Assembly: GCA_016176525.1 (NCBI GenBank)
Contig: JACOWZ010000003.1
Span: 603,925 to 644,793, forward strand
Direction: 5' to 3'
Origin: Candidatus Colwellbacteria bacterium
GTDB lineage: Bacteria > Patescibacteriota > Minisyncoccia > UBA6257 > Colwellbacteraceae
DNA: 40,869 bases
Below the pieces are notes generated by a model that saw only the letters and a program-made list of their open reading frames with translations, had not been told where the DNA came from and ran no database searches. The position numbers were made by a program, and so were the translations under genes. Shown here piece by piece: positions 760 through 40,869 of the stretch. Numbering within the stretch: the first letter of the stretch is position 1; every line of letters starts with the position of its first letter.

Positions 760-3656
760 GCGCTTTTTTTATTCATACCCCTTAATCTGCAAAATTCACA
801 TTTCTTATCACCACAATTTTTGTTCCAGAATTTCAAGCCAAAAATCTCATCAGCAACTCTTTTTATCAGTTTTTGTAAATCCCAAATTTCGTCATCTCCA
901 ATCTCAAATTTCTCTTTCTTATATCTCCCTTTTTTATCCGGCTCAATAAAATCTATAACGCCAACTTTCATTTTGTATTTGCCGTACAAATTTAAAAGCA
1001 GATTATAAAACACAAGCTGACGTTTGTAATTACCTTCTGACAGTCTAGTTTTACCCTCTATAGAATTGCGCGATTTTGGCTGGGCAGTTTTGTAGTCAAC
1101 AACCGCAACCTCATTTTTGGAGTTTAACACATCAACTCTGTCTAGCTTACCGGTTAACTTTATTCCATCTAAACTTACGCCCTCTACTTTAAATTCGTTT
1201 AAGAACTTCTCTGGAAAAGACTTTTTATACGCGTCGTGCCAGCCGCGAAGCGCCCGCTCGCCTTTTTGCATAGACTCTTTAAAATCCTGCGAATTTAATG
1301 GCTCGTGCTCCAGATTTTTACGTAAAGCGCTAAGTAAAAACTTTTTGTCGGCTTTCTTCCCCTTCTTGCATGCCTCAAAAAAATCCTTTAACGCAGCATG
1401 CACCGCAATGCCATACATTTGCGTTTTTTGCAGTGCAGTAGGCACACGCAACAGGTTGTTATAAAAATATTTCCACGGGCATTCAAGGTAATTATTAAGC
1501 GCAGTAACAGATAAACCATACTCTTTAAACAAGTTGTTTAAATATTCTTTATCTTTCACCCCAGGTTTTTTGCTCTTTACTGGTTTCCAGATTTTATGCC
1601 TTTCTTTACGAAACTTCTCTTCGTAAGAGCGCGTGTCGTGCGCCTTAATAAGATGCTTACTGATTTCTTCTATAAACTGGCTTGGCAGGCGATGCGAACC
1701 GTCCGTGCTTTTTGATGAATAAGTTATACTAATAGACTTTTTTGCCCTAGTTAGCGCAACATAGAAGAGCCTACGCTCGTCGTCATTTGTGCCGGTTGCG
1801 CTGCCGAGTGCCGCAGGCAGTTTAATTGCAACAGGCGCTCTACGGTTGCCAAAATGGCCGTCGTAGGCGTGGGTAATATATACATAATCAAACTCTCTGC
1901 CTTTGGAGCGATGCGCGGTCATAATGCGGACTTTCTCAGAAAAAACAGATGCAACAGGAAAACTGCGTTTTATTGCTATATTGTGGTTTTGCATCAAGTC
2001 TATGTAGTCTAAGAATGTTTTAAGGCCTGCATCGCGGTGGTTTTCTACCAAGGTTTTAACTTCGTTAAACAGCACATTTAATTTATCCAGTTTAGAAATT
2101 GAATCTGGGGTGTTGATAATGTAATCAAGAAATCCAGATGTGTTAACAACATCTTCAAATAAATCTATAAGGCCTATGTTTTTGCTGCGGCTATGCCAGC
2201 GGGATAGTTGGTTATAAAGTTTTGCAATTTGTGCAGACTTTGAATTGCCTAATAACTCCAGTAAACCGCCTGACCTTTTTCTTGCTTTCAAGAGCATATA
2301 AATATCTGCGCTCTTAACGCCTAAAAAGTCTAAATGTAGAAAATTAAGCAAGTGTTCATCTTCACCAAAATTTTCTATGGTTCTAAAAATAGTTATTAAC
2401 TTTGAAATATCTATATCTTCTAAAATATTTTCTTCGGACTCTACTTCAAATGGAATATTGTACTTGCCTAAATAACGCGCAAGCGGAAAAGCATCTTTGT
2501 TATCTCTGTAGAATACTGCAATCTCCGATGGCGCGACTCCATTCTTTAATTTTGCTGCAATATCTTCTGTGATAAAAAAATATTCCGCTTCCGGCTCGGT
2601 AAACGCGTAGAGGTTTATGCTTTCGCCACCCTTCTTGTTTGCTTTAAGCCCGCTTTTTAAGAGAGAATCAGCAGCATCTAAAACCGTTTGCGTAGACCTA
2701 TAACTATTTGCCAAACGAATTACCTTCGCTCTTTTGTAAAGCTTAGTAAAATATAGAAAGTTGTTTAGTGATGCTCCCTGAAACCTAAATATAGCCTGCT
2801 TTTCGTCACCTACCATAAACACGTTAGGGTTGGAGTGAAAGCTTGCTAAAAGTTCCAGAACTTTGTTTTGCGCGTTGTTTGTATCTTGGTGTTCGTCAAC
2901 CAAAATGTATTGATTTTCTTCTTGTAGGCTTAAAAGCAGTTTTTTGTGGAGCGTGAGCGCACGGACGGTTTCTATAATCATATCGTCATAATCATAAAGA
3001 CGGTTTTTACTAAGTTCGCTCTCGTATATTTTGTAGAGCTTTAATAAATCTTTATTTTTACTTATCTCTTTTTCTGCCGCCAGTTTTTCGCCTTCGGAAA
3101 AAGTCTTTTTCTTGTGTTTCAACTCCATCTCAAAATTGCGTAACAATCTCGTAAAATCTTCTACACCAACATTTTCGCGCTTAAGTGCGCTTATACTAGC
3201 CAATATTGGACGCAGGTAATAAAACTTGTCGCCATATGGTTTTAGGCGCGAAAGCTCTGTAGAATCAATGGCATTTTTAAGAATTTTTATTGCATCTGCT
3301 TCGCTTAAATTCGCACCGCCTATAATTTGCGGGAACTCCTCTGGAAAACGCCTAATTATATCGTTGCAAAAGCCATGGAATGTAAATATTTTTACACGGT
3401 AGGCAGCGCTGCCGATAATCTCTAAAAGTCTTTTGCGCATTTCGTATGCCGCGACCTCTGTAAAGGTGAGTGCCAAAATATTTTGCGGAGCAGTGTCGGT
3501 TTTACGCAAAATGTTTGCAATACGCAGTGTGAGCACGGTGGTTTTGCCTGTGCCGGGGCCGGCAATTACCATAATTGGCCCCTCAATCGTATCAACCGCC
3601 TCTCTTTGCTCGGAATTAAGTGAATTATATGATTCCTTAAATTTTTGCGATGTCAT
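756..3656 (-). CDS. UvrD/PcrA-family SF1A helicase fused to a C-terminal PD-(D/E)XK (RecB/AddB-type) nuclease
   Basis: Helicase motifs AGPGTGKT, LVDEHQD, VGDEKQAIFRFQGA and EERRLFYVALTRA-like. Nuclease motifs GKLDRVD, VVDYKT and QLVFY. Cys pattern YLECP...CGDKKCEFC. Confidence 0.9.
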   Translation of the reverse strand: MTSQKFKESYNSLNSEQREAVDTIEGPIMVIAGPGTGKTTVLTLRIANILRKTDTAPQNILALTFTEVAAYEMRKRLLEIIGSAAYRVKIFTFHGFCNDIIRRFPEEFPQIIGGANLSEADAIKILKNAIDSTELSRLKPYGDKFYYLRPILASISALKRENVGVEDFTRLLRNFEMELKHKKKTFSEGEKLAAEKEISKNKDLLKLYKIYESELSKNRLYDYDDMIIETVRALTLHKKLLLSLQEENQYILVDEHQDTNNAQNKVLELLASFHSNPNVFMVGDEKQAIFRFQGASLNNFLYFTKLYKRAKVIRLANSYRSTQTVLDAADSLLKSGLKANKKGGESINLYAFTEPEAEYFFITEDIAAKLKNGVAPSEIAVFYRDNKDAFPLARYLGKYNIPFEVESEENILEDIDISKLITIFRTIENFGEDEHLLNFLHLDFLGVKSADIYMLLKARKRSGGLLELLGNSKSAQIAKLYNQLSRWHSRSKNIGLIDLFEDVVNTSGFLDYIINTPDSISKLDKLNVLFNEVKTLVENHRDAGLKTFLDYIDLMQNHNIAIKRSFPVASVFSEKVRIMTAHRSKGREFDYVYITHAYDGHFGNRRAPVAIKLPAALGSATGTNDDERRLFYVALTRAKKSISITYSSKSTDGSHRLPSQFIEEISKHLIKAHDTRSYEEKFRKERHKIWKPVKSKKPGVKDKEYLNNLFKEYGLSVTALNNYLECPWKYFYNNLLRVPTALQKTQMYGIAVHAALKDFFEACKKGKKADKKFLLSALRKNLEHEPLNSQDFKESMQKGERALRGWHDAYKKSFPEKFLNEFKVEGVSLDGIKLTGKLDRVDVLNSKNEVAVVDYKTAQPKSRNSIEGKTRLSEGNYKRQLVFYNLLLNLYGKYKMKVGVIDFIEPDKKGRYKKEKFEIGDDEIWDLQKLIKRVADEIFGLKFWNKNCGDKKCEFCRLRGMNKKSA

Positions 3657-3703
3657 TCAATGTATTGTATCGAAAAAGGCAATAAGAGAAAACTCTAGAA
3701 AAA

Positions 3704-3732
3704 TTGACGCATGAATAAATAAATGCTACTCT
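3704..3732 (+). promoter_or_regulatory. sigma70 promoter for the 3757 ORF
   Basis: TTGACG-17 nt-TACTCT with an extended -10 TG. Confidence 0.55.
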
Positions 3733-3756
3733 CCCGTCAGTACATAAGGGAGACAT

Positions 3757-4023
3757 ATGACACGCAAAAATTCGCCCCTAGGAAAAGAGTGGAATGCAAT
3801 GCTTAGAGCGCGAGATCAAGCGGACGCCGCGCTCGCCAAATTAGAGAAATCAATGCGCAATAATCCCAAAAAGGCTTTTGAGATTCTTCGCCGCCAGTTC
3901 CCGCGAATTGACCACATCCTGCGCAAAGAGAGGGTTGCCCTAGATAATTGGAAAACTCCAACATCTATGGTGATAGAAGCTTCATCTCTCAAATCCAGCA
4001 ATCCACTAGGAGAACAACCCTAG
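3757..4023 (+). CDS. Hypothetical 88-aa orphan protein
   Basis: ATG with SD-like AAGGGAG, own promoter upstream and terminator downstream. Confidence 0.65.
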   Translation: MTRKNSPLGKEWNAMLRARDQADAALAKLEKSMRNNPKKAFEILRRQFPRIDHILRKERVALDNWKTPTSMVIEASSLKSSNPLGEQP

Positions 4024-4028
4024 TCCCA

Positions 4029-4053
4029 AGCAGCCACTCGGCTGCTCTTTTTT
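4029..4053 (+). terminator. Intrinsic terminator
   Basis: AGCAGCC-actc-GGCTGCT followed by a T run. Confidence 0.7.
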
Positions 4054-4054
4054 A

Positions 4055-5062
4055 TTATCCATGTCGAATTTCTGTTACATCACCATCTTGAAAAATATAC
4101 TCCTTCCCTTCTAAACGCAGCCAGCCTTTTTGTTTGGCTTTTGCCCAGCCGCCAGCTTCCAGCAATTTATCTGATTGGATAACCTCAGCGCGAATAAATT
4201 TCTTTTCAAAATCAGTATGTATTACCCCAGCAGCTTGTGGGGCATATGTCCCGCGAGCAATAGTCCAAGCGCGAGTTTCGTCTTCCCCCGTCGTAAAAAA
4301 ACTTATAAGCCCTAAAACCTCATATGCTTTTTTAACAAGTTCATAAACGCCGGCATTACTTGCAAGATTAACAACCAAATAATCTGCGCCAAGTTCTTTT
4401 ATTTTATTTTTAAGTTCCTCACTTACATCTGTTGGTTCGCCGTTTAGTAAATAAATTTGTTTTTTCGCGGTCAAAAGGTTTAGCTCGTGTAAAATTTCGG
4501 CGCCAAGAAGTTCTTGCGGCAACGTAAAAAGCAGTTTGCCGGCTTCAAGCTCGCTTTTAATTTTATTTACAATTTCTAGGTCTTTAATTTTCTGTTTATC
4601 GCCAGTTCGAGCCTCCCCTTCTAACTTGCTTAAACGCTTTTCTATGGTTTCTAAGTCTTTAAGCTGGAGCTCTGAATTTATGGTTTCAATATCGCGCATT
4701 GGGTTAACGCTTGCATCAACATGAATAATCTCATCTGACTTAAAAACGCGCACAACCTGGACAATGGCCTGAGTTTCGCGGATATGACTTAAGAATTGGT
4801 TGCCGAGCCCCTCGCCTTTGTTTGCTCCTTTCACGAGCCCGGCGATATCATAAAACTCCACAACCGCAGGAATCACTTTTGCTGATTTATTCATCTCTGC
4901 AAGTTTACTTAGCCGCTCGTCCGGTACAGGCACAATACCAATATTTGGGTCAATAGTCGCAAACGGATAATTTGCGATAGTTATAGGGATATTAGTAAGT
5001 GCCTTAAAAAGCGTGGACTTACCCACGTTTGGCATACCAACTATGCCGATACTTAGTTTCAT
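4055..5062 (-). CDS. ychF: Ribosome-binding ATPase YchF
   Basis: GMPNVGKST, ANYPFATIDPN, DIAGLVKGA and a C-terminal TGS domain (AAGVIHTDF). Confidence 0.97.
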   Translation of the reverse strand: MKLSIGIVGMPNVGKSTLFKALTNIPITIANYPFATIDPNIGIVPVPDERLSKLAEMNKSAKVIPAVVEFYDIAGLVKGANKGEGLGNQFLSHIRETQAIVQVVRVFKSDEIIHVDASVNPMRDIETINSELQLKDLETIEKRLSKLEGEARTGDKQKIKDLEIVNKIKSELEAGKLLFTLPQELLGAEILHELNLLTAKKQIYLLNGEPTDVSEELKNKIKELGADYLVVNLASNAGVYELVKKAYEVLGLISFFTTGEDETRAWTIARGTYAPQAAGVIHTDFEKKFIRAEVIQSDKLLEAGGWAKAKQKGWLRLEGKEYIFQDGDVTEIRHG

Positions 5063-5094
5063 AGAATAAAGATATTACACTATCAATAGTTTTA

Positions 5095-5122
5095 TTGACA
5101 AATATACTAAATGTAGTATTAT
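5095..5122 (+). promoter_or_regulatory. sigma70 promoter for the 5163 ORF
   Basis: TTGACA-16 nt-TATTAT. Confidence 0.6.
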
Positions 5123-5162
5123 TTAAACATAGTTCTTTTCGAACTTTTTGGAGGAAAGGAAA

Positions 5163-5384
5163 GTGCAGAAGCAAATACAACAGATCGAGATCGGACAGGC
5201 CGGCAAGTTTGCTGGCAAAGGAAGGCAATGTGTTGAACATGGCCGACGAGTACAACCGACCGATAAAAAGGCGGAGCCACCTGAACAGCGGGGATGGTTG
5301 TTCCAAAAATTTGCACCTGAGCGCCTCTTCAAGTGCCCAACAGGGCATCTGGTAGGAGAAAGCAAAACGAAAATCGTTACCTAG
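5163..5384 (+). CDS. Hypothetical 73-aa protein with CxxH/CxxxH pairs (possible Zn finger)
   Basis: GTG start after GGAGGAAAGG SD. CVEH and CPTGH motifs. Own promoter and terminator. Confidence 0.65.
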   Translation: MQKQIQQIEIGQAGKFAGKGRQCVEHGRRVQPTDKKAEPPEQRGWLFQKFAPERLFKCPTGHLVGESKTKIVT

Positions 5385-5404
5385 ATAAGACTACACAACG
5401 AGTG

Positions 5405-5454
5405 CTAAGCATCACTCGTACAACAAAAACTGCTTATTTTTTTTATTTTATAAA
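5405..5454 (+). terminator. Terminator-like element, copy 1 of a direct repeat (copy 2 at 6028-6070)
   Basis: TAAGCA...TGCTTA plus T run. CAAAAACTGCTTATTTTTTT(T)ATTTTATAAA is shared with 6041-6070. Confidence 0.7.
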
Positions 5455-5476
5455 AAGCACACTATTGATAGTGCTA

Positions 5477-5505
5477 TTGACAAATATATTATTCTATGTT
5501 AAAAT
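5477..5505 (+). promoter_or_regulatory. sigma70 promoter for the 5619 ORF
   Basis: TTGACA-17 nt-TAAAAT with an extended -10 TG. Confidence 0.7.
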
Positions 5506-5529
5506 TAGATGTTCATTTAAAATTTAGAA

Positions 5530-5577
5530 ATAAGGCGAGTTCCCTGATTCTAATGGGAACCAGAGAACTCGCCTTAT
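5530..5577 (+). other. Strong 5'-UTR hairpin
   Basis: Perfect 13-bp stem ATAAGGCGAGTTC/GAACTCGCCTTAT with further inner pairing. Confidence 0.7.
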
Positions 5578-5618
5578 CGTTATGGTTTGGCGGGAAAATG
5601 AAAAAGAGGTATGTCGTT

Positions 5619-6005
5619 ATGGCAACCAAAGAAAAACTAGAGATCGTCGAAGGACCGAGCAAATGGGACCTAATCGTGGCACTCGGAGAGAAAGGCAAGC
5701 GAGTTCGCTTCACTCTGAAGAGTCTAGGCGGCCGCAAATATACGCCACCACCTCTATACGGCCCCTCCTTTCCGAAAGAGTTGGTCTCTCAGGGCGTAGA
5801 GATAACGGCAGAAGTATGGCTCCAGGGGCTCGAGACGGAAGATGGATCTCACGAAAGCTGGCTCATAAAGGGCCGTTTCGATAGCCGCCTCGAGATACAA
5901 GACGGTGGGCCAGCACACGAATTCGAAGGTTATTATCACAGCCGCACCCGAAAAGGCAACATAACTGTGATCTGCGATAAAAGCCGCGAACTAGCACCTC
6001 TATAA
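5619..6005 (+). CDS. Hypothetical 128-aa protein (GPSKWDL...EDGS...GYY..RTRKG motifs)
   Basis: ATG at 5619 after SD AAGAGGT. Own promoter and terminator. Confidence 0.75.
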   Translation: MATKEKLEIVEGPSKWDLIVALGEKGKRVRFTLKSLGGRKYTPPPLYGPSFPKELVSQGVEITAEVWLQGLETEDGSHESWLIKGRFDSRLEIQDGGPAHEFEGYYHSRTRKGNITVICDKSRELAPL

Positions 6006-6027
6006 GCCCAACTCATCCCAAAAAGTC

Positions 6028-6070
6028 CTAAGCATGACTTCAAAAACTGCTTATTTTTTTATTTTATAAA
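6028..6070 (+). terminator. Terminator-like element, copy 2, overlapping the uvrC stop codon
   Basis: CTAAGCATGACTTCAAAAACTGCTTATTTTTTTATTTTATAAA. Confidence 0.7.
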
Positions 6071-7270
6071 TCCCCTGCTTCGCAATGCTTTGTGGTAACC
6101 GACAGCAAACCTGTGCGCTTCGTCACGAACACGGATCAGTGTTTTTTTATCAACACTGGTCGGCACAACGCTGATAAATTCATTCTTCTTACGCTTTGCG
6201 CCTTTGGCAATGCCAATAACCGGAATTTTTATGCCGAATTCTTCTAAAATGGCTTTTGCGCCATTTACCTGTCCTTTGCCGCCATCAATTAAAATTATGT
6301 CCGGCGTCCCCCACTCTCTATGACTCATCCGGCGGCGGAGAACTTCTTTTATCATACCAACATCGTCTGATTGATGGATAGTTTTAATTTTAAATTTTTT
6401 ATATTGATTCCGCGCGGGTTTGTCGCCCAAAAACACAACCATTGAACCAACTGCATAGTCACCCGAGATGTTTGAGATATCGTAACCCTCTATTCTAGTT
6501 TGTAGTTTGTAGTGAGTAGTTGGTAGAGTAGAATCGCTGATCAGCGCGGTGTCTTGAATGTGTTTTAATGCGAAAATCTTGCCGCGGAGCTTTGCGGCTA
6601 TTTCAAACTCTTGCGCCCTAGCTGCCGCTTTCATCTCGCGCTCAAGGTTTTTGATAATTCGAGCTTTTTTGCCTTGGAACAGGAGCTTAATATTGCGGAT
6701 ATTTTTTAGATAATCAGCGCGATTTATCCCACCGATGCAAGTGCCGGGGCAAAGCCCGATTTGATAATCAAAGCACCCACGCACCTGTTTCCTATCAGAA
6801 AGGGTGCGGGGCAAGCCCACTCCTTTTTCGGGATGAACAGAAAATGGGAATATTTTGCGGATTATTCGTAGAGCTTCCCTGATTTGCGAAGCTGAAGTAA
6901 AAGGACCATAGATAGTTTTTAGAGTTTTACCACGAACTAGAAGTACACGCGGGAACTTCTCGAGTGTAATTTCTACATATAAGAAACTTTTGTCGTCTTT
7001 TTCTTTAATATTGTATGGCGGCTGATATTTTTTGATTAGCTCTGCTTCTAAAATAAGCGCCTCAAGTGCAGAGTCGGTTTTTTTATAGTCAATTTTTTTG
7101 ATTTCGCTAACCAACTTTTCAATACGGGAATCATGCGGCCTTAGAAAGTAACTAGAAACTCTGCGGCGTAAATTGCCTGCTTTTCCAACATAAAGAATCT
7201 TGTCGCGCGGGCTCTTCATCAGATAAACACCCGGCGTGTCTGGTAGATTTTTGTATAATTTATTCTCCAT
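6059..7270 (-). CDS. uvrC: Excinuclease ABC subunit C, short form without the C-terminal (HhH)2 domain
   Basis: GIY-YIG domain (PGVYLM, LYVGKA, ALILEAELIKKYQPPYN), UVR coiled coil, RNase H-like domain (IEGYDISN, IDGGKGQ, RDEAHRFA). Start moved to the ATG at 7270. Confidence 0.93.
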   Translation of the reverse strand: MENKLYKNLPDTPGVYLMKSPRDKILYVGKAGNLRRRVSSYFLRPHDSRIEKLVSEIKKIDYKKTDSALEALILEAELIKKYQPPYNIKEKDDKSFLYVEITLEKFPRVLLVRGKTLKTIYGPFTSASQIREALRIIRKIFPFSVHPEKGVGLPRTLSDRKQVRGCFDYQIGLCPGTCIGGINRADYLKNIRNIKLLFQGKKARIIKNLEREMKAAARAQEFEIAAKLRGKIFALKHIQDTALISDSTLPTTHYKLQTRIEGYDISNISGDYAVGSMVVFLGDKPARNQYKKFKIKTIHQSDDVGMIKEVLRRRMSHREWGTPDIILIDGGKGQVNGAKAILEEFGIKIPVIGIAKGAKRKKNEFISVVPTSVDKKTLIRVRDEAHRFAVGYHKALRSRGFIK

Positions 7271-7298
7271 TACTCTAAATATACTACTACAATAGATT

Positions 7299-7322
7299 AG
7301 GCCTCGATATGCATCGAGGCCT
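7299..7322 (-). terminator. Hairpin downstream of the 31-aa ORF
   Basis: AGGCCTCGAT-atgc-ATCGAGGCCT, a perfect 10-bp stem. No clear T tail. Confidence 0.55.
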
Positions 7323-7346
7323 TCATTTCTACGGGAAGAGATGCGC

Positions 7347-7442
7347 TCAGTCAGACTTGGAGCCAACGCGCTCGGTAAGCTCCCAGTCGTCCGCTACAAG
7401 GCGGACCCAGTTTCCTTCCATCACTGCTTTCTGTGCTTCCAT
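7347..7442 (-). CDS. Small 31-aa protein MEAQKAVMEGNWVRLVADDWELTERVGSKSD (not in the ORF track)
   Basis: Near-perfect SD AGGAGGTG, promoter TTGACA(7505-7500)-17 nt-TAACAT, downstream hairpin. Confidence 0.65.
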   Translation of the reverse strand: MEAQKAVMEGNWVRLVADDWELTERVGSKSD

Positions 7443-7514
7443 CCTTTCACCTCCTCTTCTTAGAGGATCTGCGCACATGTTAGCACAACAAATTAATTAT
7501 GTCAAATGTTTGCG

Positions 7515-7624
7515 AACCAAACCCATTGTGTCGAGAGTCATCTTCGGAGCCTGACGAGGCGAGAAAAAGGCGAAAATTCAGTAAGAATTTTACGCCGGTG
7601 ACTCGAGATACTGTGGGTTTGGTT
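7515..7624. repeat. 110-bp structured element with 11-bp terminal inverted repeats
   Basis: AACCAAACCCA/TGGGTTTGGTT ends, an inner GAGTCATC/GGTGACTC stem and two internal hairpins. Confidence 0.6.
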
Positions 7625-10175
7625 ACTTCAATACCTTACGTAAATACTCCCCGGTGGCGCTGCCTTTTGCGCGGGCAATTTGTTCCGGAGTGCCGTGGGA
7701 TACAACCTCCCCGCCACTGTCGCCACCATCAGGACCTAGGTCAATTACCCAGTCTGCGGTTTTAATTACATCTAAATTGTGCTCAATAACTACAACCGTA
7801 TTCCCCCGTTCAACAAGCCTGTTTAACACATCAAGCAGTTTATGGACATCGGCAAAATGCAGCCCCGTTGTGGGCTCGTCTAATATATAAATTGTTTGCC
7901 TTGTGTCGCGCTTACCGAGTTCGGAGGCGAGCTTTACTCTCTGTGCCTCGCCGCCGGATAAAGTTGTTGCAGACTGGCCAAGTTCTAAATAACCCAAGCC
8001 TACCTCGTCTATTATAGAGAGTTTGTCATTTAGCCAAGGAATGTCTTTAAAGAAATCACGCGCCTCTTCAACTGTCATTTTTAGAACATCGTGAATATTT
8101 TTGCCTTGATAATTTACCTCTAAGGTTTCGCGGTCAAAACGCTTACCCTTGCAAACATCGCAGGCGACATAAACAGTCGGCAAAAAATGCATTTCTATGC
8201 CGATGTAACCGTGGCCTTCGCAGTTTTCACACCTGCCGCCCTTTACGTTAAAGCTAAATCTTCCCGGCTTCCATCCGCGCACGCGGGCGCCTTCTGTTGC
8301 CGCAAACAAATCTCGAATGTGCGTCCACGCGCCGATGTATGTCGCCGGGTTAGAGCGCGGAGTGCGGCCAATCGGAGACTGGTCTATGCTTATAACCCTA
8401 TTTAGGTATTCAAGGCCGAGAATTGATTTATGCGCACCGACTTTGTTATTGGCGCGGTTCAACTTATTAGCAAGATGTTTGTAGAGCACCTCGTACACAA
8501 GCGTGCTTTTGCCGGAGCCGGAAACGCCAGTGACTGCCGTAAACCGCCCCAACGGAATATCAATGTTTATATTTTTTAGGTTGTTTTCTTTAGCGCCGCG
8601 GATTTTAATATGCGGAATGGTTTTATCAACTTTTTTGCGTTTCTGGGGAACCGGAATAAACTGTTCGCCGCGCAAATAGCGCAATGTAGATGTGCTTTGT
8701 TTTTTATCTTTTATAATCTGGGGTATCTCGCCTTGTGCTATTACTTTGCCGCCGTGCACTCCCGCGCCAGGTCCAAAATCTACCAAATAATCTGATTCTC
8801 TTATTGTTTCTTCGTCGTGCTCCACTACAATTATGCTGTTGCCCAAGTTTCGCAAGTCGTGAAGGGTTTTAATAAGCTTTGCGTTGTCGCGCTGGTGCAG
8901 ACCTATAGTAGGTTCGTCCAAAACATATAGGGCGCCGACGAGCCGAGAACCAATTTGGCTAGCAAGCCGGATTCTTTGCGACTCGCCGCCAGAGAGAGTG
9001 CCAGCGCGCCTATCAAGCGTTAAATATTGCAAACCCACATCTATCATAAATTTAAGTCGGCTTCTAATTTCACGAAGCGGCACTTCTGCAACCTCGCTTT
9101 CTTTTGCCGAAAGTTTTTTTTCTAAAGAGCCGAAGAACTTGTAAGCATCCGCAATTGAGGAGCCTGTTACAGTAACAATACTTTTATTGTCTAGCATAAC
9201 AGAAAGTGCCTCTCGCTTTAGACGTTTGCCTTCGCACTTTGGGCAAATATCGCCAACTCTTTGCCAACCTGCGGCTTCTTCGTGCTCCCAATGCAAGCTT
9301 ACATCACCTATGCCGTGGCACTCTTCGCAAGCGCCGTATGGGCTGTTGAACGAGAAGAGCCGCGGTTCAATCTCTGGAAAAGAAAATCCGTCACGCGGGC
9401 ATGTAAACTTCGCAGAAAGAGAGGTTTCTTTATCACCGACAATCACGGTTACAACATCATTGCCGTATTTTATGGCACTCTCTACCGCTTCGGCGAGACG
9501 TAGACGATTGTCTTTTTGGCTAAAATCCAACCCACCTGGAATTCGGTCAACAACAATTTCTATTGTGTGGGCTTTATATCTTTCTAAATTTATTCTTTGG
9601 CGTAAATTACGAAGCTCTCCATCTATGCGCGCTTCGCTGAAACCTGCGTTTAAAAAATCATAAAGCATTTGGTAATACTCACCTTTGCGGCCGCGCACTG
9701 CGGGAGAGAGCACAACTAGATTTTTATTTGTTTTGTCTTGTTTATAGAGTTCTATAATCGCATCCACAATTTCGGAGGGCGTCATTTTGCGAATTTGCGT
9801 TCCACATTCCGGGCAATGCGGTTTGCCAGCGCGGGCAAAAAGCACGCGAAGGTAATCGTAGATTTCTGTTATTGTTGCAACGGTTGAGCGCGGATTTGCA
9901 GAGTGCGCTTTTTGGTCAATAGATATCGCAGGAGAGAGTCCTTCAATTTCGTCAACATCCGGCTTATCAAGCTTGCCTAAAAACTGCCGCGCGTAGGCAG
10001 ATAGCGATTCAATATATCGTCTCTGCCCCTCGGCAAAAATGGTGTCGTACGCAAGCGAAGACTTGCCTGACCCAGAAAGACCGGTAAAAACTACCATCTT
10101 ATTGCGAGGAATCTCTAGATTTATATTTTTTAGGTTGTGCTCTCTGGCTCCCTTAACCTTAATTTTGTCTTGCAT
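7623..10175 (-). CDS. uvrA: Excinuclease ABC subunit A
   Basis: Two ABC ATPase modules (GLSGSGKSS, GVSGSGKST, LSGGE, LDEPT) and Zn-finger CxxC pairs. Confidence 0.98.
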   Translation of the reverse strand: MQDKIKVKGAREHNLKNINLEIPRNKMVVFTGLSGSGKSSLAYDTIFAEGQRRYIESLSAYARQFLGKLDKPDVDEIEGLSPAISIDQKAHSANPRSTVATITEIYDYLRVLFARAGKPHCPECGTQIRKMTPSEIVDAIIELYKQDKTNKNLVVLSPAVRGRKGEYYQMLYDFLNAGFSEARIDGELRNLRQRINLERYKAHTIEIVVDRIPGGLDFSQKDNRLRLAEAVESAIKYGNDVVTVIVGDKETSLSAKFTCPRDGFSFPEIEPRLFSFNSPYGACEECHGIGDVSLHWEHEEAAGWQRVGDICPKCEGKRLKREALSVMLDNKSIVTVTGSSIADAYKFFGSLEKKLSAKESEVAEVPLREIRSRLKFMIDVGLQYLTLDRRAGTLSGGESQRIRLASQIGSRLVGALYVLDEPTIGLHQRDNAKLIKTLHDLRNLGNSIIVVEHDEETIRESDYLVDFGPGAGVHGGKVIAQGEIPQIIKDKKQSTSTLRYLRGEQFIPVPQKRKKVDKTIPHIKIRGAKENNLKNINIDIPLGRFTAVTGVSGSGKSTLVYEVLYKHLANKLNRANNKVGAHKSILGLEYLNRVISIDQSPIGRTPRSNPATYIGAWTHIRDLFAATEGARVRGWKPGRFSFNVKGGRCENCEGHGYIGIEMHFLPTVYVACDVCKGKRFDRETLEVNYQGKNIHDVLKMTVEEARDFFKDIPWLNDKLSIIDEVGLGYLELGQSATTLSGGEAQRVKLASELGKRDTRQTIYILDEPTTGLHFADVHKLLDVLNRLVERGNTVVVIEHNLDVIKTADWVIDLGPDGGDSGGEVVSHGTPEQIARAKGSATGEYLRKVLK

Positions 10176-10251: not shown

Positions 10252-12240
10252 TTATATTTTTGTTTTCTTAGATAAGGCTTTTATCTCATCGCGGATGAGT
10301 GCTGCGAGTTCAAAGTCCAGAGATTCAGCGGCTTCTTTCATCTCGCGTTCTTTTTCTTTAATAAGCGATTTTAATGCCTTATCAGTTTTGGGCAAAGGCA
10401 TAGTTTCTAACTTTAAGATTTCTTCTGCGGGTAAAATGTCTTTTACTTCTTTAATAATTGTCTTTGGAGTAATGCCGTGTTTTTTGTTATACGCAATCTG
10501 TATCTCACGCCGCCTTTCCGTCTCCCCAACCGCGCGTTTTATAGAGCCGGTGATGTTGTCTGCATATATAAGCACCTCGCCGTTAACGTTACGCGCCGCA
10601 CGGCCAATGGTTTGGACTAAGCTGGTTTCGCTCCGCAAAAAGCCTTCTTTGTCTGCATCTAAAATTGCAATTAATGACACTTCTGGCAAGTCCAAGCCTT
10701 CACGAAGAAGGTTTACGCCGACAATTACATCATACGTTCCCTTGCGAAGCCCAGTTAGAACTCTGATACGATCCAACGTTTTTACGTCACTATGCAGATA
10801 ATTAACTTTGATTTTTAAGTCCTCGAGATAACTTGATAAATCTTCTGCCATGCGTTTAGTTAGCGTGGTAACAAGCACGCGCTCTTTCTTTTCTATCCGT
10901 TCTTTAATGCGTGGAATCAAGTTTTCTATTTGTCCGCGAGCAGGTTGGATTCTAACTTTTGGATCCACAAGGCCCGTTGGGCGAATTATTTGCTCAACTA
11001 TTCCGTCTTTTTCGCTCTTTTTTAATTCATACGGGCCCGGCGTTGCTGATGTATAAATAACGTTTGGCATACGCGCTTCAAACTCGCTGAACTTTAATGG
11101 ACGGTTATCTGCGGCTGATGGAAGCCGAAATCCGTATTCAACAAGCGTTTTCTTGCGCGAGGCATCGCCGGCATACATTCCATTTAGCTGTGGTACTGTA
11201 ACGTGCGACTCATCTATAACCATCAAAAAATCGTCTGGGTAGTAATCTAAAAGCGTGTCTGGCGGCTCGCCTTCTCTGCGCCCAGATAGATGGCGCGAGT
11301 AATTCTCTATGCCGTTGCAATAGCCGATTTCGCGCATCATTGCCAAATCTGCTTTTGTGCGCCGTTCAATCCGCTCGGCTTCCAAATATAATTTGTTATC
11401 TTCAAAATATTTGAGCCGTTCTTTGAGTTCTTCTTGAATATTCTTAATTGCACTATCGCGTGCATGGTCTTCTGTAATAAAATGGCGCGCGGGAGAAATA
11501 AATACTTCTTCCACTTTAGGCGTCTTGCCATGTATAAATCCTTTTACAGGGTCAATCTCATATATTTCGGCGATTATCCCCTTTTTGAGAACAAGATTAT
11601 AAATCTTTTGTTCGCCCGGCGGCATAATTTCCCAGTTATCGCCACGCAGACGAAATGTGCCGCGCTTTAAATCCGCGCTCGTGCGGTTAAACTGCATTTT
11701 AATAAGCTTTGTTGTAAGTGATTTTCTATCAACTTTATCCCCTACCTTAAAGTGGATAATATGTTCGCTATATGTCTCCGGTGCGCCCAAGCCATAGATG
11801 CAAGAAACAGACGCAACTATGATTACATCTTTGCGTGTTAGGAGCGCTGATGTAGCCGCATGGCGGAGTTTATCTATCTCGTCGTTTATCATCGCCTCTT
11901 TGCCGATGTAGGTGTCGGTTGTGGGCATATAGGCCTCTGGCTGGTAGTAGTCGTAGTAAGAAACAAAATAATGCACGGCATTGTGCGGAAAAAGGTCGCG
12001 AAACTCGTTGCAAAGTTGTGCGGCAAGAGTTTTGTTGTGCGCAATTACAAGTGTGGGCTTTTGTACCTTCTCAATAACATTCGCGATGGTAAAAGTTTTG
12101 CCAGAACCAGTAACACCCAAAAGTGTTTGGTGTTTTTTATTTTTCTCCAACCCCAAAACAAGCGACTTTATCGCTTTCGGCTGATCACCCGCAGGCTTAT
12201 TAGGGCTTACAATTTTAAATTTTGAATTTTCAATTTTCAT
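10252..12240 (-). CDS. uvrB: Excinuclease ABC subunit B
   Basis: [18 protein letters not shown] beta-hairpin, [13 protein letters not shown] and a C-terminal UVR domain. Confidence 0.98.
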
Positions 12241-40551: not shown

Positions 40552-40869
40552 TCATTTAATAAGAGCCTTCAATTCCCCTATCTCTTTCTGCTGTTCTCTT
40601 ATTATTTCGAGCAATTCTTGCTCTCTTGTAGAACTTGAATTGTTAGCAAATGCGTTTTTTATAAAACTAGGCAGCCAAAGTGTTGCGGTTTGGAAATTAG
40701 AGGAGTTAGGGCCAGAAGAAACCGATGAGCAAGTTCCTGTTCCATTAGCAAGGTTAAATCCGCGCAGAGCCTGGCCTGCCGGGCAAGAAATAGACGAGCT
40801 TGTTATGCAATTTGTATTGCTATTAAGGCAAAATCCACTGTCGGCTCTGATATTCCCGCCCACATGGAG
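40552..40869 (-). CDS. 3' end of a paralogous surface or fibre-like protein (5'-truncated by the window edge)
   Basis: Same LHVGGNIRAD module, then a C-terminal coiled coil IREQQKEIGELKALIK. Confidence 0.7.
   Translation of the reverse strand, partial: LHVGGNIRADSGFCLNSNTNCITSSSISCPAGQALRGFNLANGTGTCSSVSSGPNSSNFQTATLWLPSFIKNAFANNSSSTREQELLEIIREQQKEIGELKALIK
40771..40869. repeat. 99-bp perfect direct repeat, copy 2 (runs to the window end)
   Basis: Identical to 40344-40442. Confidence 0.95.

Follow-up and report, generated by a model that had tools for sequence, protein, structure and literature searches.

Between the core genes ychF and uvrC of a Candidatus Colwellbacteria bacterium, in a 40,869-nucleotide (nt) stretch of its DNA (contig JACOWZ010000003.1, positions 603,925 to 644,793; this whole stretch is hereafter the window), lie two small plus-strand genes, each with its own promoter and transcript end, whose interiors are unrelated and whose flanking elements, here termed bookends, are homologous. 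We find this to be a real cassette pair of a non-integron type, of the promoter-early stem-loop (PeSL) kind, situated in a bacterial chromosome and a candidate for mobility. The genome, a member of the Candidate Phyla Radiation (CPR), comprises 656 kb in four contigs with 42.5% G+C, against 51-53% G+C within the units. The original prediction, made from the letters of the window, had described two promoter-gene-terminator units with matching flanks and unrelated products, had taken one flank to duplicate the 3' end of uvrC, and had proposed an integron-like capture array; as detailed below, the first description stands, the second stands in part, and the third does not.

Two units within homologous bookends

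The elements that make up the two units are as follows, in window coordinates.

5077-5109, plus strand: left bookend, copy 1, with the palindrome ACTATCAATAGT at 5079-5090 and the -35 element TTGACA at 5095-5100
5117-5122, plus strand: -10 element TATTAT of copy 1 (promoter match 11/12)
5163-5384, plus strand: gene 1 (P0002), 73 amino acids (aa), basic, with a GTG start behind GGAGG
5398-5454, plus strand: right bookend, copy 1; first helix (P1) ACGAGTG/CACTCGT at 5398-5404 and 5413-5419, loop CTAAGCAT at 5405-5412, linker 5420-5430, TGCTTA 5431-5436, eight T at 5437-5444, ATTTTATAAA at 5445-5454
5455-5458: 4-nt filler AAGC at the inner terminator-promoter joint
5459-5491, plus strand: left bookend, copy 2, with the palindrome ACTATTGATAGT at 5461-5472 and TTGACA at 5477-5482
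5500-5505, plus strand: -10 element TAAAAT of copy 2, with upstream TG (promoter match 11/12)
5512-5618, plus strand: 5' leader of gene 2, its start placed from the -10 element, with a hairpin of 21-bp arms at 5530-5577 (fold z -3.9)
5619-6005, plus strand: gene 2 (P0001), 128 aa, recognised by its coding score and family membership
6023-6070, plus strand: right bookend, copy 2; P1 AAGTC/GACTT at 6023-6027 and 6036-6040, loop CTAAGCAT at 6028-6035, linker 6041-6047, TGCTTA 6048-6053, seven T at 6054-6060, ATTTTATAAA at 6061-6070
5066-5070, 5450-5454 and 6066-6070: three identical ATAAA 5-mers at the cassette boundaries

A repeat search aligned the left flanks (5077-5109 and 5459-5491) at 28 of 33 positions, or 85% identity, and the 12-mers at 5079-5090 and 5461-5472 are exact reverse complements. 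The right flanks (5396-5454 and 6019-6070) are alike over about 55 nt with one 6-nt and one 1-nt insertion or deletion, and are returned by the same search as a 25-nt segment (5424-5448 with 6041-6065, 92%) and a 21-nt segment (5396-5416 with 6019-6039, 81%). Shuffled windows yielded no match to either flank, and the concern, raised beforehand, that such flanks might score no better than shuffled DNA is thereby answered. Across the genome both flanks occur at the present locus alone, and both occur there twice: the left 30-mer has just two copies at up to 4 mismatches, the next best site having 7 (Hamming scan), the right repeat reaches E 8.8e-6 (blastn-short against the whole genome), and a genome-wide self-blast found no further partner of either flank. 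Searches for the exact left-flank pattern elsewhere gave no match in the metagenome, genome and viral collections, and the exact right 20-mer pattern gave seven matches in genome contigs of unrelated taxa, which we take to be chance or further copies of the RNA motif described below.

The interiors (5110-5395 and 5492-6018) are alike only at the level of shuffled sequence on both strands (z -0.5 and +0.5), the proteins of genes 1 and 2 align at a BLASTP E of 0.44, and hhalign assigns gene 1 a probability of 0.11% against the gene-2 family. Remote paralogy of the two proteins is ruled out by these three comparisons, and the description of two promoter-gene-terminator units with homologous flanks and unrelated products agrees with all of them, as it does with the repeat search and the shuffles.

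The inner joint (5398-5505) runs from the pseudoknot and its U tract through 14 nt of AT-rich spacer and filler into the palindrome and TTGACA-17-TAAAAT. At the outer end of unit 2, the right flank overlaps the stop and last three codons of uvrC (6059-6070). The 10 nt ATTTTATAAA that follow the T run are identical in both right flanks (5445-5454 and 6061-6070), and the ATAAA 5-mers presumably mark the cassette boundaries.

The promoter and pseudoknot elements

The left bookend is, as read from its sequence, a near-consensus sigma-70 promoter. In each copy a 12-nt palindrome of 6-2-6 form, centred on CA in copy 1 and on TG in copy 2, is followed after 4 nt by the promoter elements (TTGACA-16-TATTAT and TTGACA-17-TAAAAT, each matching 11 of 12 consensus positions). 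The palindrome is probably an operator, and is put forward here as a candidate. NrdR, an ATP-cone-domain protein, binds 16-bp palindromes (NrdR-boxes) that usually occur as paired sites. We considered this identity and rejected it: both left flanks agree with the NrdR-box consensus at 13 of 16 positions, but sites that match equally well number 25 in the genome and 11-22 in shuffled sequence, and the absence of any ATP-cone protein from the genome also counts against such a reading. On the opposite strand there is a second promoter-like sequence:

5072-5101, minus strand: TTGTCA-18-TAATAT, facing ychF (9/12 in a consensus scan), a putative promoter

It ends 9 nt before the ychF start and has its -35 region in common with the unit-1 promoter. 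Given that ychF lacks a Shine-Dalgarno sequence, its start lying 4 nt from the first ATAAA, the gene may be nearly leaderless and driven by this divergent promoter.

The right bookend is predicted to be a conserved H-type pseudoknot with covarying helices. The motif consists of a variable stem of 4-6 bp (P1), the loop CUAAGCAU, an A-rich linker, UGCUUA and a U tract, and its TGCTTA can pair with the loop to form a second helix (P2). The P1 of copy 1 is present in the minimum-energy fold, and its run of eight T reads as seven in the contigs of sequencing run X3. The two copies in the window differ precisely in the variable parts of the motif, namely in P1 (two compensatory pair changes) and in linker length.

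Without a stem requirement, the pattern is matched by 52 viral contigs of IMG/VR, 46 of which have at least four consecutive P1 pairs adjoining the loop, with 26 distinct stems. In a second viral scan two positions per strand of the loop-tail helix were left free; it matched 103 stretches, 80 of them available for comparison. Among instances with a valid P1 and a short linker, the P2 combinations were 32 G-C or C-G, 9 U-G wobble and 2 changes of G-C to A-U, with no mismatch, and one inner copy carried a change of C-G to U-A. For 39 distinct fixed-length instances, 98.5% of cells pair, as compared with 82.5% in shuffles (none of 500 shuffles reached the observed value) and with 19-43% when the partner strand was slid. 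Compensatory changes are seen at all four P1 pairs and at both P2 pairs that the pattern left free, a count to be read with the caveat that four of the six second-helix pairs were fixed by the search pattern.

The viruses that carry the motif include phages of cyanobacteria, Firmicutes and Proteobacteria. It occurs in Geobacillus phage GR1, directly after the holin gene, and also in Microcystis phage MaMV-DC, Synechococcus phage S-SM2, Clostridium phage phiCT19406B and Streptococcus phage Javan407. The strict pattern is present in one of 401 CPR genomes, which is the present genome itself. In E. coli genomes the motif had no match. An upstream open reading frame (ORF) ends 5-9 nt before the stem in about 22 of the 52 viral contigs, and the flanking genes are diverse, the 46 upstream proteins falling into 30 clusters and the 34 downstream proteins into 24. 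Because of this position after the stop codon and these diverse neighbours, a generic transcript-end or processing element fits better than a riboswitch, and the right bookend most likely ends or stabilises the transcript. It is like an intrinsic terminator in being a structured RNA followed by 7-8 U, placed in the window 13-17 nt beyond the stop codons and in many viral instances 5-9 nt beyond. It is unlike one in that the helix before the U tract has six pairs, only two of them G-C, and is formed with the loop of an upstream hairpin; furthermore, sequence conservation of the loop and 3' strand extends over phages with unrelated hosts, which is not so in plain terminators.

The 10 nt ATTTTATAAA are not conserved among the viral instances, and their identity in the two window copies argues for common descent of these copies. 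This also bears on the proposal that the inner copy duplicates the uvrC end: both copies do share the same ATTTTATAAA, but most of the right-flank identity is the invariant RNA motif, and only these trailing 10 nt lie outside it.

The pseudoknot appears to be an undescribed RNA motif. Rfam 15 gave no meaningful match at E up to 1 (positions 3500-7700 and locus L138) or at E up to 10 (motif stretches of 86-91 nt). The literature on phage pseudoknot motifs yielded nothing fitting, the supplements of one catalogue of candidate phage RNAs (PMC10690425) being a place that may hold it, and a literature search with the letters of the motif returned only primers and one Listeria repeat. That 23-nt repeat, from a small array in Listeria monocytogenes resembling CRISPR, is similar to the 3' half of the pseudoknot (a stem arm, the A-rich linker and TGCTTA) in the available part of the source (PMC12041059), a likeness suggesting that motif arrays may exist in bacteria.

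The cargo genes and their setting

The coding score of gene 2 is 0.165, that of real genes being 0.217 +/- 0.068, which marks it as coding, and the gene belongs, judging by sequence similarity, to a patchily distributed CPR family of small proteins. Its 77 remote relatives are about 100 aa long each, and compared with them it carries an insertion at about residues 36-64; the family has the conserved blocks GPSKFDL, EDGS.ESW and GYY..R.R.G. Members were found in 15 of 401 genomes of the phylum and 19 of 401 of the class, the present genome counted in, and one homologue carries the source label Candidatus Staskawiczbacteria. Gene 2 matches no Pfam or PHROG family. Its AlphaFold model has a predicted local distance difference test (pLDDT) score of 80.5, with CBF-beta as the best structural match at Z 6.0, below the noise level stated for the tool. 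The family gene is always solitary, in varied contexts with no recurrent neighbour among 28 loci; three other family loci adjoin tRNA genes, and a search of viral contigs with one peptide pattern, a weak test, found no member.

Upstream of the family gene lies a leader that is a candidate cis-regulatory RNA of this CPR-specific family, as comparison of the leaders at loci L090-L099 and L118-L133 suggests. These have in common a hairpin in which a G(U/A/G)AU loop tops a wide variety of stems, additional hairpins, a conserved GGAGGUG.CGUAUG start region and an apparent anti-Shine-Dalgarno stretch; the leader in the window is a diverged member, of the L118/L122 subtype. At least six of seven stem pairs form in 19 of 27 loci, a count biased towards pairing since the best hairpin was chosen per region. 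Rfam 15 gave no match over the leaders in nine family loci, and this motif, too, appears to be undescribed. Elsewhere in CPR genomes, gene 2 and its leader occur as a module with other promoters, with ordinary hairpin terminators and in many contexts, which indicates that the present bookends are local and not part of the cargo.

Less can be said for gene 1, an orphan with a good ribosome-binding site, whose coding score is 0.0 (against 0.213 +/- 0.082 for real genes) and whose predicted fold is unusable (pLDDT 49). A word-index search restricted to near lengths found no relative among 5.8 billion proteins, 400 other CPR genomes held nothing better than E 0.004, and there was no Atlas match.

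Of 27 other loci of the gene-2 family (88 kb in total), 4 have duplicated terminator-type sequence beside the family gene, compared with 3 of 80 control uvrC neighbourhoods (551 kb); the Fisher p is 0.066 and the per-base Poisson p 0.0013. The four cases are these:

G268: duplicate of 50 nt, 90% identical, unique in its genome
G548: duplicate of 53 nt at 98% identity, unique in its genome; a convergent gene has one of the copies as its 3' end, as uvrC does here
G620 and G572: duplicates at contig ends; the G572 core is dispersed in its genome

Similar arrangements, with a single gene between two terminator-type copies, were seen in CPR DNA at L006 and L135. At L006, one of the control matches, a 170-aa gene lies directly after uvrC between two terminator copies (5253-5289 and 5830-5866 of that locus), and at L135 an M50-protease-like gene lies between copies at 10118-10170 and 11183-11235, one of which is the 3' end of a convergent gene.

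The surrounding genes of the window are as follows.

4055-5062, minus strand: ychF, 335 aa (ORF list; tblastn)
6059-7270, minus strand: uvrC, ending ...GFIK* (ORF list)
7623-10175, minus strand: uvrA (ORF list)
3757-4023, plus strand: 88-aa ORF in the helicase-ychF gap, scoring as coding (0.105)
7347-7478, minus strand: 43-aa ORF in the uvrC-uvrA gap, of raised G+C

Along the minus strand the order is thus uvrA, uvrC and ychF, with the two small plus-strand genes between the latter two; as both neighbours lie on the minus strand, both units are convergent with uvrC and divergent from ychF. Synteny of uvrA and uvrC is frequent in relatives. Among 80 related metagenome loci only two have ychF after uvrC, L026 (79 nt away) and L021 (2 kb away), ychF relatives being present in both by tblastn. 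The uvrC proteins of relatives end in ...AFIG*, ...GFLN* and ...AFI*, and the end ...GFIK* found here, which resembles them, looks native. The 88-aa and 43-aa ORFs are two further small reading frames of raised G+C in the adjoining gaps, each followed by a hairpin, and small inserts seem to accumulate along the whole uvrA-uvrC-ychF row.

Other repeats were noted in this genome. A dispersed repeat of about 115 nt, in at least 14 copies over the 656 kb, occurs in the window between uvrC and uvrA (7513-7623) and at G000 C1:11592-11705, 410843-410969, 474712-474826 and 513946-514059, among others; it had no Rfam match in the stretch searched and could be a small RNA family or resemble a miniature inverted-repeat transposable element. 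A second family, of about 130 nt, has a 68-nt core in common with it. Outside the window, a perfect 28-nt palindrome occurs four times (G000 C1:39946-39973, 40559-40586, 169040-169067 and 599474-599500), once within a ComF-like ORF, and a 69-nt stretch from the 5' end of one gene (C1:551969-552037) recurs at 94% identity 2.3 kb away (C1:554266-554334), at the start of a response-regulator-like ORF.

Origin of the cassette pair

PeSL elements are, in the available portions of the papers that describe them, mobile regulatory cassettes of T4-type phages, composed of a stop codon, an AT-rich stretch, a structured terminator, a strong sigma-70 promoter, a Shine-Dalgarno sequence and a start codon, and genes are proposed to be gained, lost or exchanged, with no integrase involved, when these short conserved elements recombine with one another (Arbiol et al. 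2010, PMC2839356; Comeau et al. 2014, PMC4122927). The present units share with these the bracketing of small orphan genes by a terminator-promoter composite, as is seen at the inner joint, and both their anatomy and the recombination route we consider match those proposed in the portions seen. They differ in lying between core genes of a CPR chromosome rather than in a phage hyperplastic region, in having a sequence-conserved pseudoknot where the PeSL has, in those same portions, a G/C-rich stem-loop, and in that neither a sister genome with an insertion or deletion nor a mini-circle was seen here. Among the papers listed in a literature search, none links PeSL elements with Patescibacteria or CPR organisms.

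Phage morons are self-contained promoter-gene-terminator inserts between two genes, defined in prophages. The units resemble morons in having their own promoter and transcript end, atypical G+C, and a position between genes of an older operon-like row; they differ in that no phage genes flank the locus, and in that morons would not be expected to have bookends in common.

The explanation we would give about an even chance is that these are PeSL-like cassettes in which ordinary recombination or duplication has put the bookends to repeated use. Two accessory transcription units, each self-contained, would then have come to lie between uvrC and ychF, with different cargo within the same two bookends. 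The outer bookends would be tied to the core genes, the promoter region of copy 1 also supplying the divergent ychF promoter and the tail of the outer pseudoknot, copy 2, encoding the last uvrC residues and stop, and the inner pseudoknot-AAGC-promoter joint would be the scar left by the addition of the second unit. That addition may have proceeded through homologous recombination between bookends, with a circle (Campbell-type) or a tandem duplicate carrying promoter, cargo and terminator, or through tandem duplication followed by replacement of the cargo; a dedicated recombinase would not be needed. The order of events, the recombination route, the activity of the terminator, the operator function and an original uvrC-ychF overlap are what we infer in this scheme.

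In its favour we count the homologous bookends around unrelated interiors, the two promoter matches together with the putative site facing ychF, the conserved pseudoknot, the identical trailing 10 nt, the gene-2 module that lacks these bookends elsewhere, the duplicated terminators near that family, and the likeness to PeSL cassettes.

Several observations weigh against it. There are only two units, and neither bookend occurs elsewhere in the genome, as opposed to about 50 PeSL copies per phage genome in the available portion of the source (PMC2839356). The closest uvrC found is 70% identical and gene 2 is in none of 60 relatives, no same-genus genome being among those 60, such that no close relative shows a gain, loss or swap. 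Contigs of four sequencing runs hold the two-unit form alone, apart from the T7/T8 difference, with no single-unit, cross-unit or circle joint, contigs being prone to hide rare forms. The homology arms, at 33-55 nt, are short for RecA-type recombination, and the divergence of the bookends by about 15% suggests that the event was not recent or that the copies are of different source. Neither copy of the 3' element, our candidate terminator, was picked up by a standard terminator scan (at least 5 stem pairs, 3 or more of them G-C, a loop of 3-8 nt and a T run directly after). Sigma-70-like promoters follow the viral motif in 7 of 40 cases, compared with 6 of 40 upstream and 4 of 40 in shuffled sequence, and given this lack of enrichment the terminator-promoter composite is not a module shared with phages. 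Gene 1, last, may have arisen recently or may not be a gene.

Among the rival explanations, it is rather unlikely, though deserving of attention, that one unit was simply duplicated in tandem and that an unrelated insertion or deletion later replaced one interior, the bookends having no role in gene traffic and being kept only since each unit needs a promoter and an end. The anchoring of the outer copies in ychF and uvrC and the 4-nt filler at the inner joint are as expected from a tandem duplication, the bookends occur at this locus only, and no mobility enzyme is present. Such a course, however, demands a second event that removed exactly the cargo while sparing both bookends; the same pattern is also commoner near the gene-2 family elsewhere than in control loci, and the 3' bookend, which is otherwise phage-borne and present in one of 401 CPR genomes, points to imported DNA. 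This phage association might instead mean that the two units arrived independently, each bringing its own promoter type and pseudoknot, for instance from related phages, their similarity reflecting function or source. We regard this as improbable. The right-flank identity is indeed mostly the invariant part of the motif found in the 52 viral contigs and the named phages, the copies differ in every variable part of it, and the divergence of about 15% would be in keeping with separate arrival; yet the trailing 10 nt, unconserved among viral instances, are identical here, the left flanks agree at 28 of 33 positions, palindrome included, with nothing similar in the metagenome, genome and viral scans, no gene-2 family member turned up on viral contigs (by one peptide pattern), and separate arrival would require both units to insert head to tail within a single gap.

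A site-specific capture, in which the recombinase of an integron-like or small integrative element would insert DNA at an ATAAA-like core and the bookends would be its recognition sites, we consider very unlikely. ATAAA does occur at all three boundaries (5066-5070, 5450-5454 and 6066-6070), the sole feature that resembles a target duplication, three other family loci adjoin tRNA genes, and, on reading the sequence, joining 5070 to 6071 restores a uvrC ending in ...GFIL* whose TGA overlaps the ychF ATG. This joint is a tidy hypothetical ancestral state and weak evidence, as a 5-nt AT-rich repeat carries little weight and the in-frame overlap arises by accident about one time in three. Like an integron array, the locus has unrelated small genes in tandem with a structured element recurring between them, but the cassettes have their own promoters and the recurring element is an RNA pseudoknot with a promoter. 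No IntI-type integrase adjoins it; the genome has one tyrosine recombinase (PF00589, C1:200383-200898), about 400 kb away, and no serine recombinase. Reading the flanks revealed no attI and no attC-type cores (by comparison with their consensus), the repeat search found no inverted repeat pairing the unit ends, and the ORF list has no transposase-sized ORF in the units; the absence of the latter two also sets the locus apart from a transposon or insertion sequence. The integron reading thus fails for want of a nearby integrase, an attC site or inverted terminal repeats, and since one flank is a promoter and the other an RNA pseudoknot with compensatory changes, we take the flanks to be functional elements, with roles of their own, and not att sites. 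Of the two alternatives that the original prediction had offered, duplication of a unit followed by replacement of its ORF remains viable, and a target-duplication footprint is borne out only in part, by the trailing 10 nt.

Returning to PeSL-like cassettes, we raise, more tentatively, the possibility that the pseudoknot represents an undescribed, portable class of transcript end, borne mainly by phages of many host phyla and set directly after stop codons, which together with the promoter forms a socket at this locus for unrelated orphan genes brought in through ordinary recombination. CPR genomes are tiny and rich in orphan genes, and a socket built of reusable modules would offer a simple route to gain or swap genes without an enzyme of its own. 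Two by-products of this work are possibly of wider interest, a covarying phage pseudoknot without a Rfam match and a conserved leader RNA of a CPR-specific family. If the socket reading is correct, the cassette shuffling of T4-type phages would also operate in ultra-small bacterial genomes, in part with phage-derived parts.

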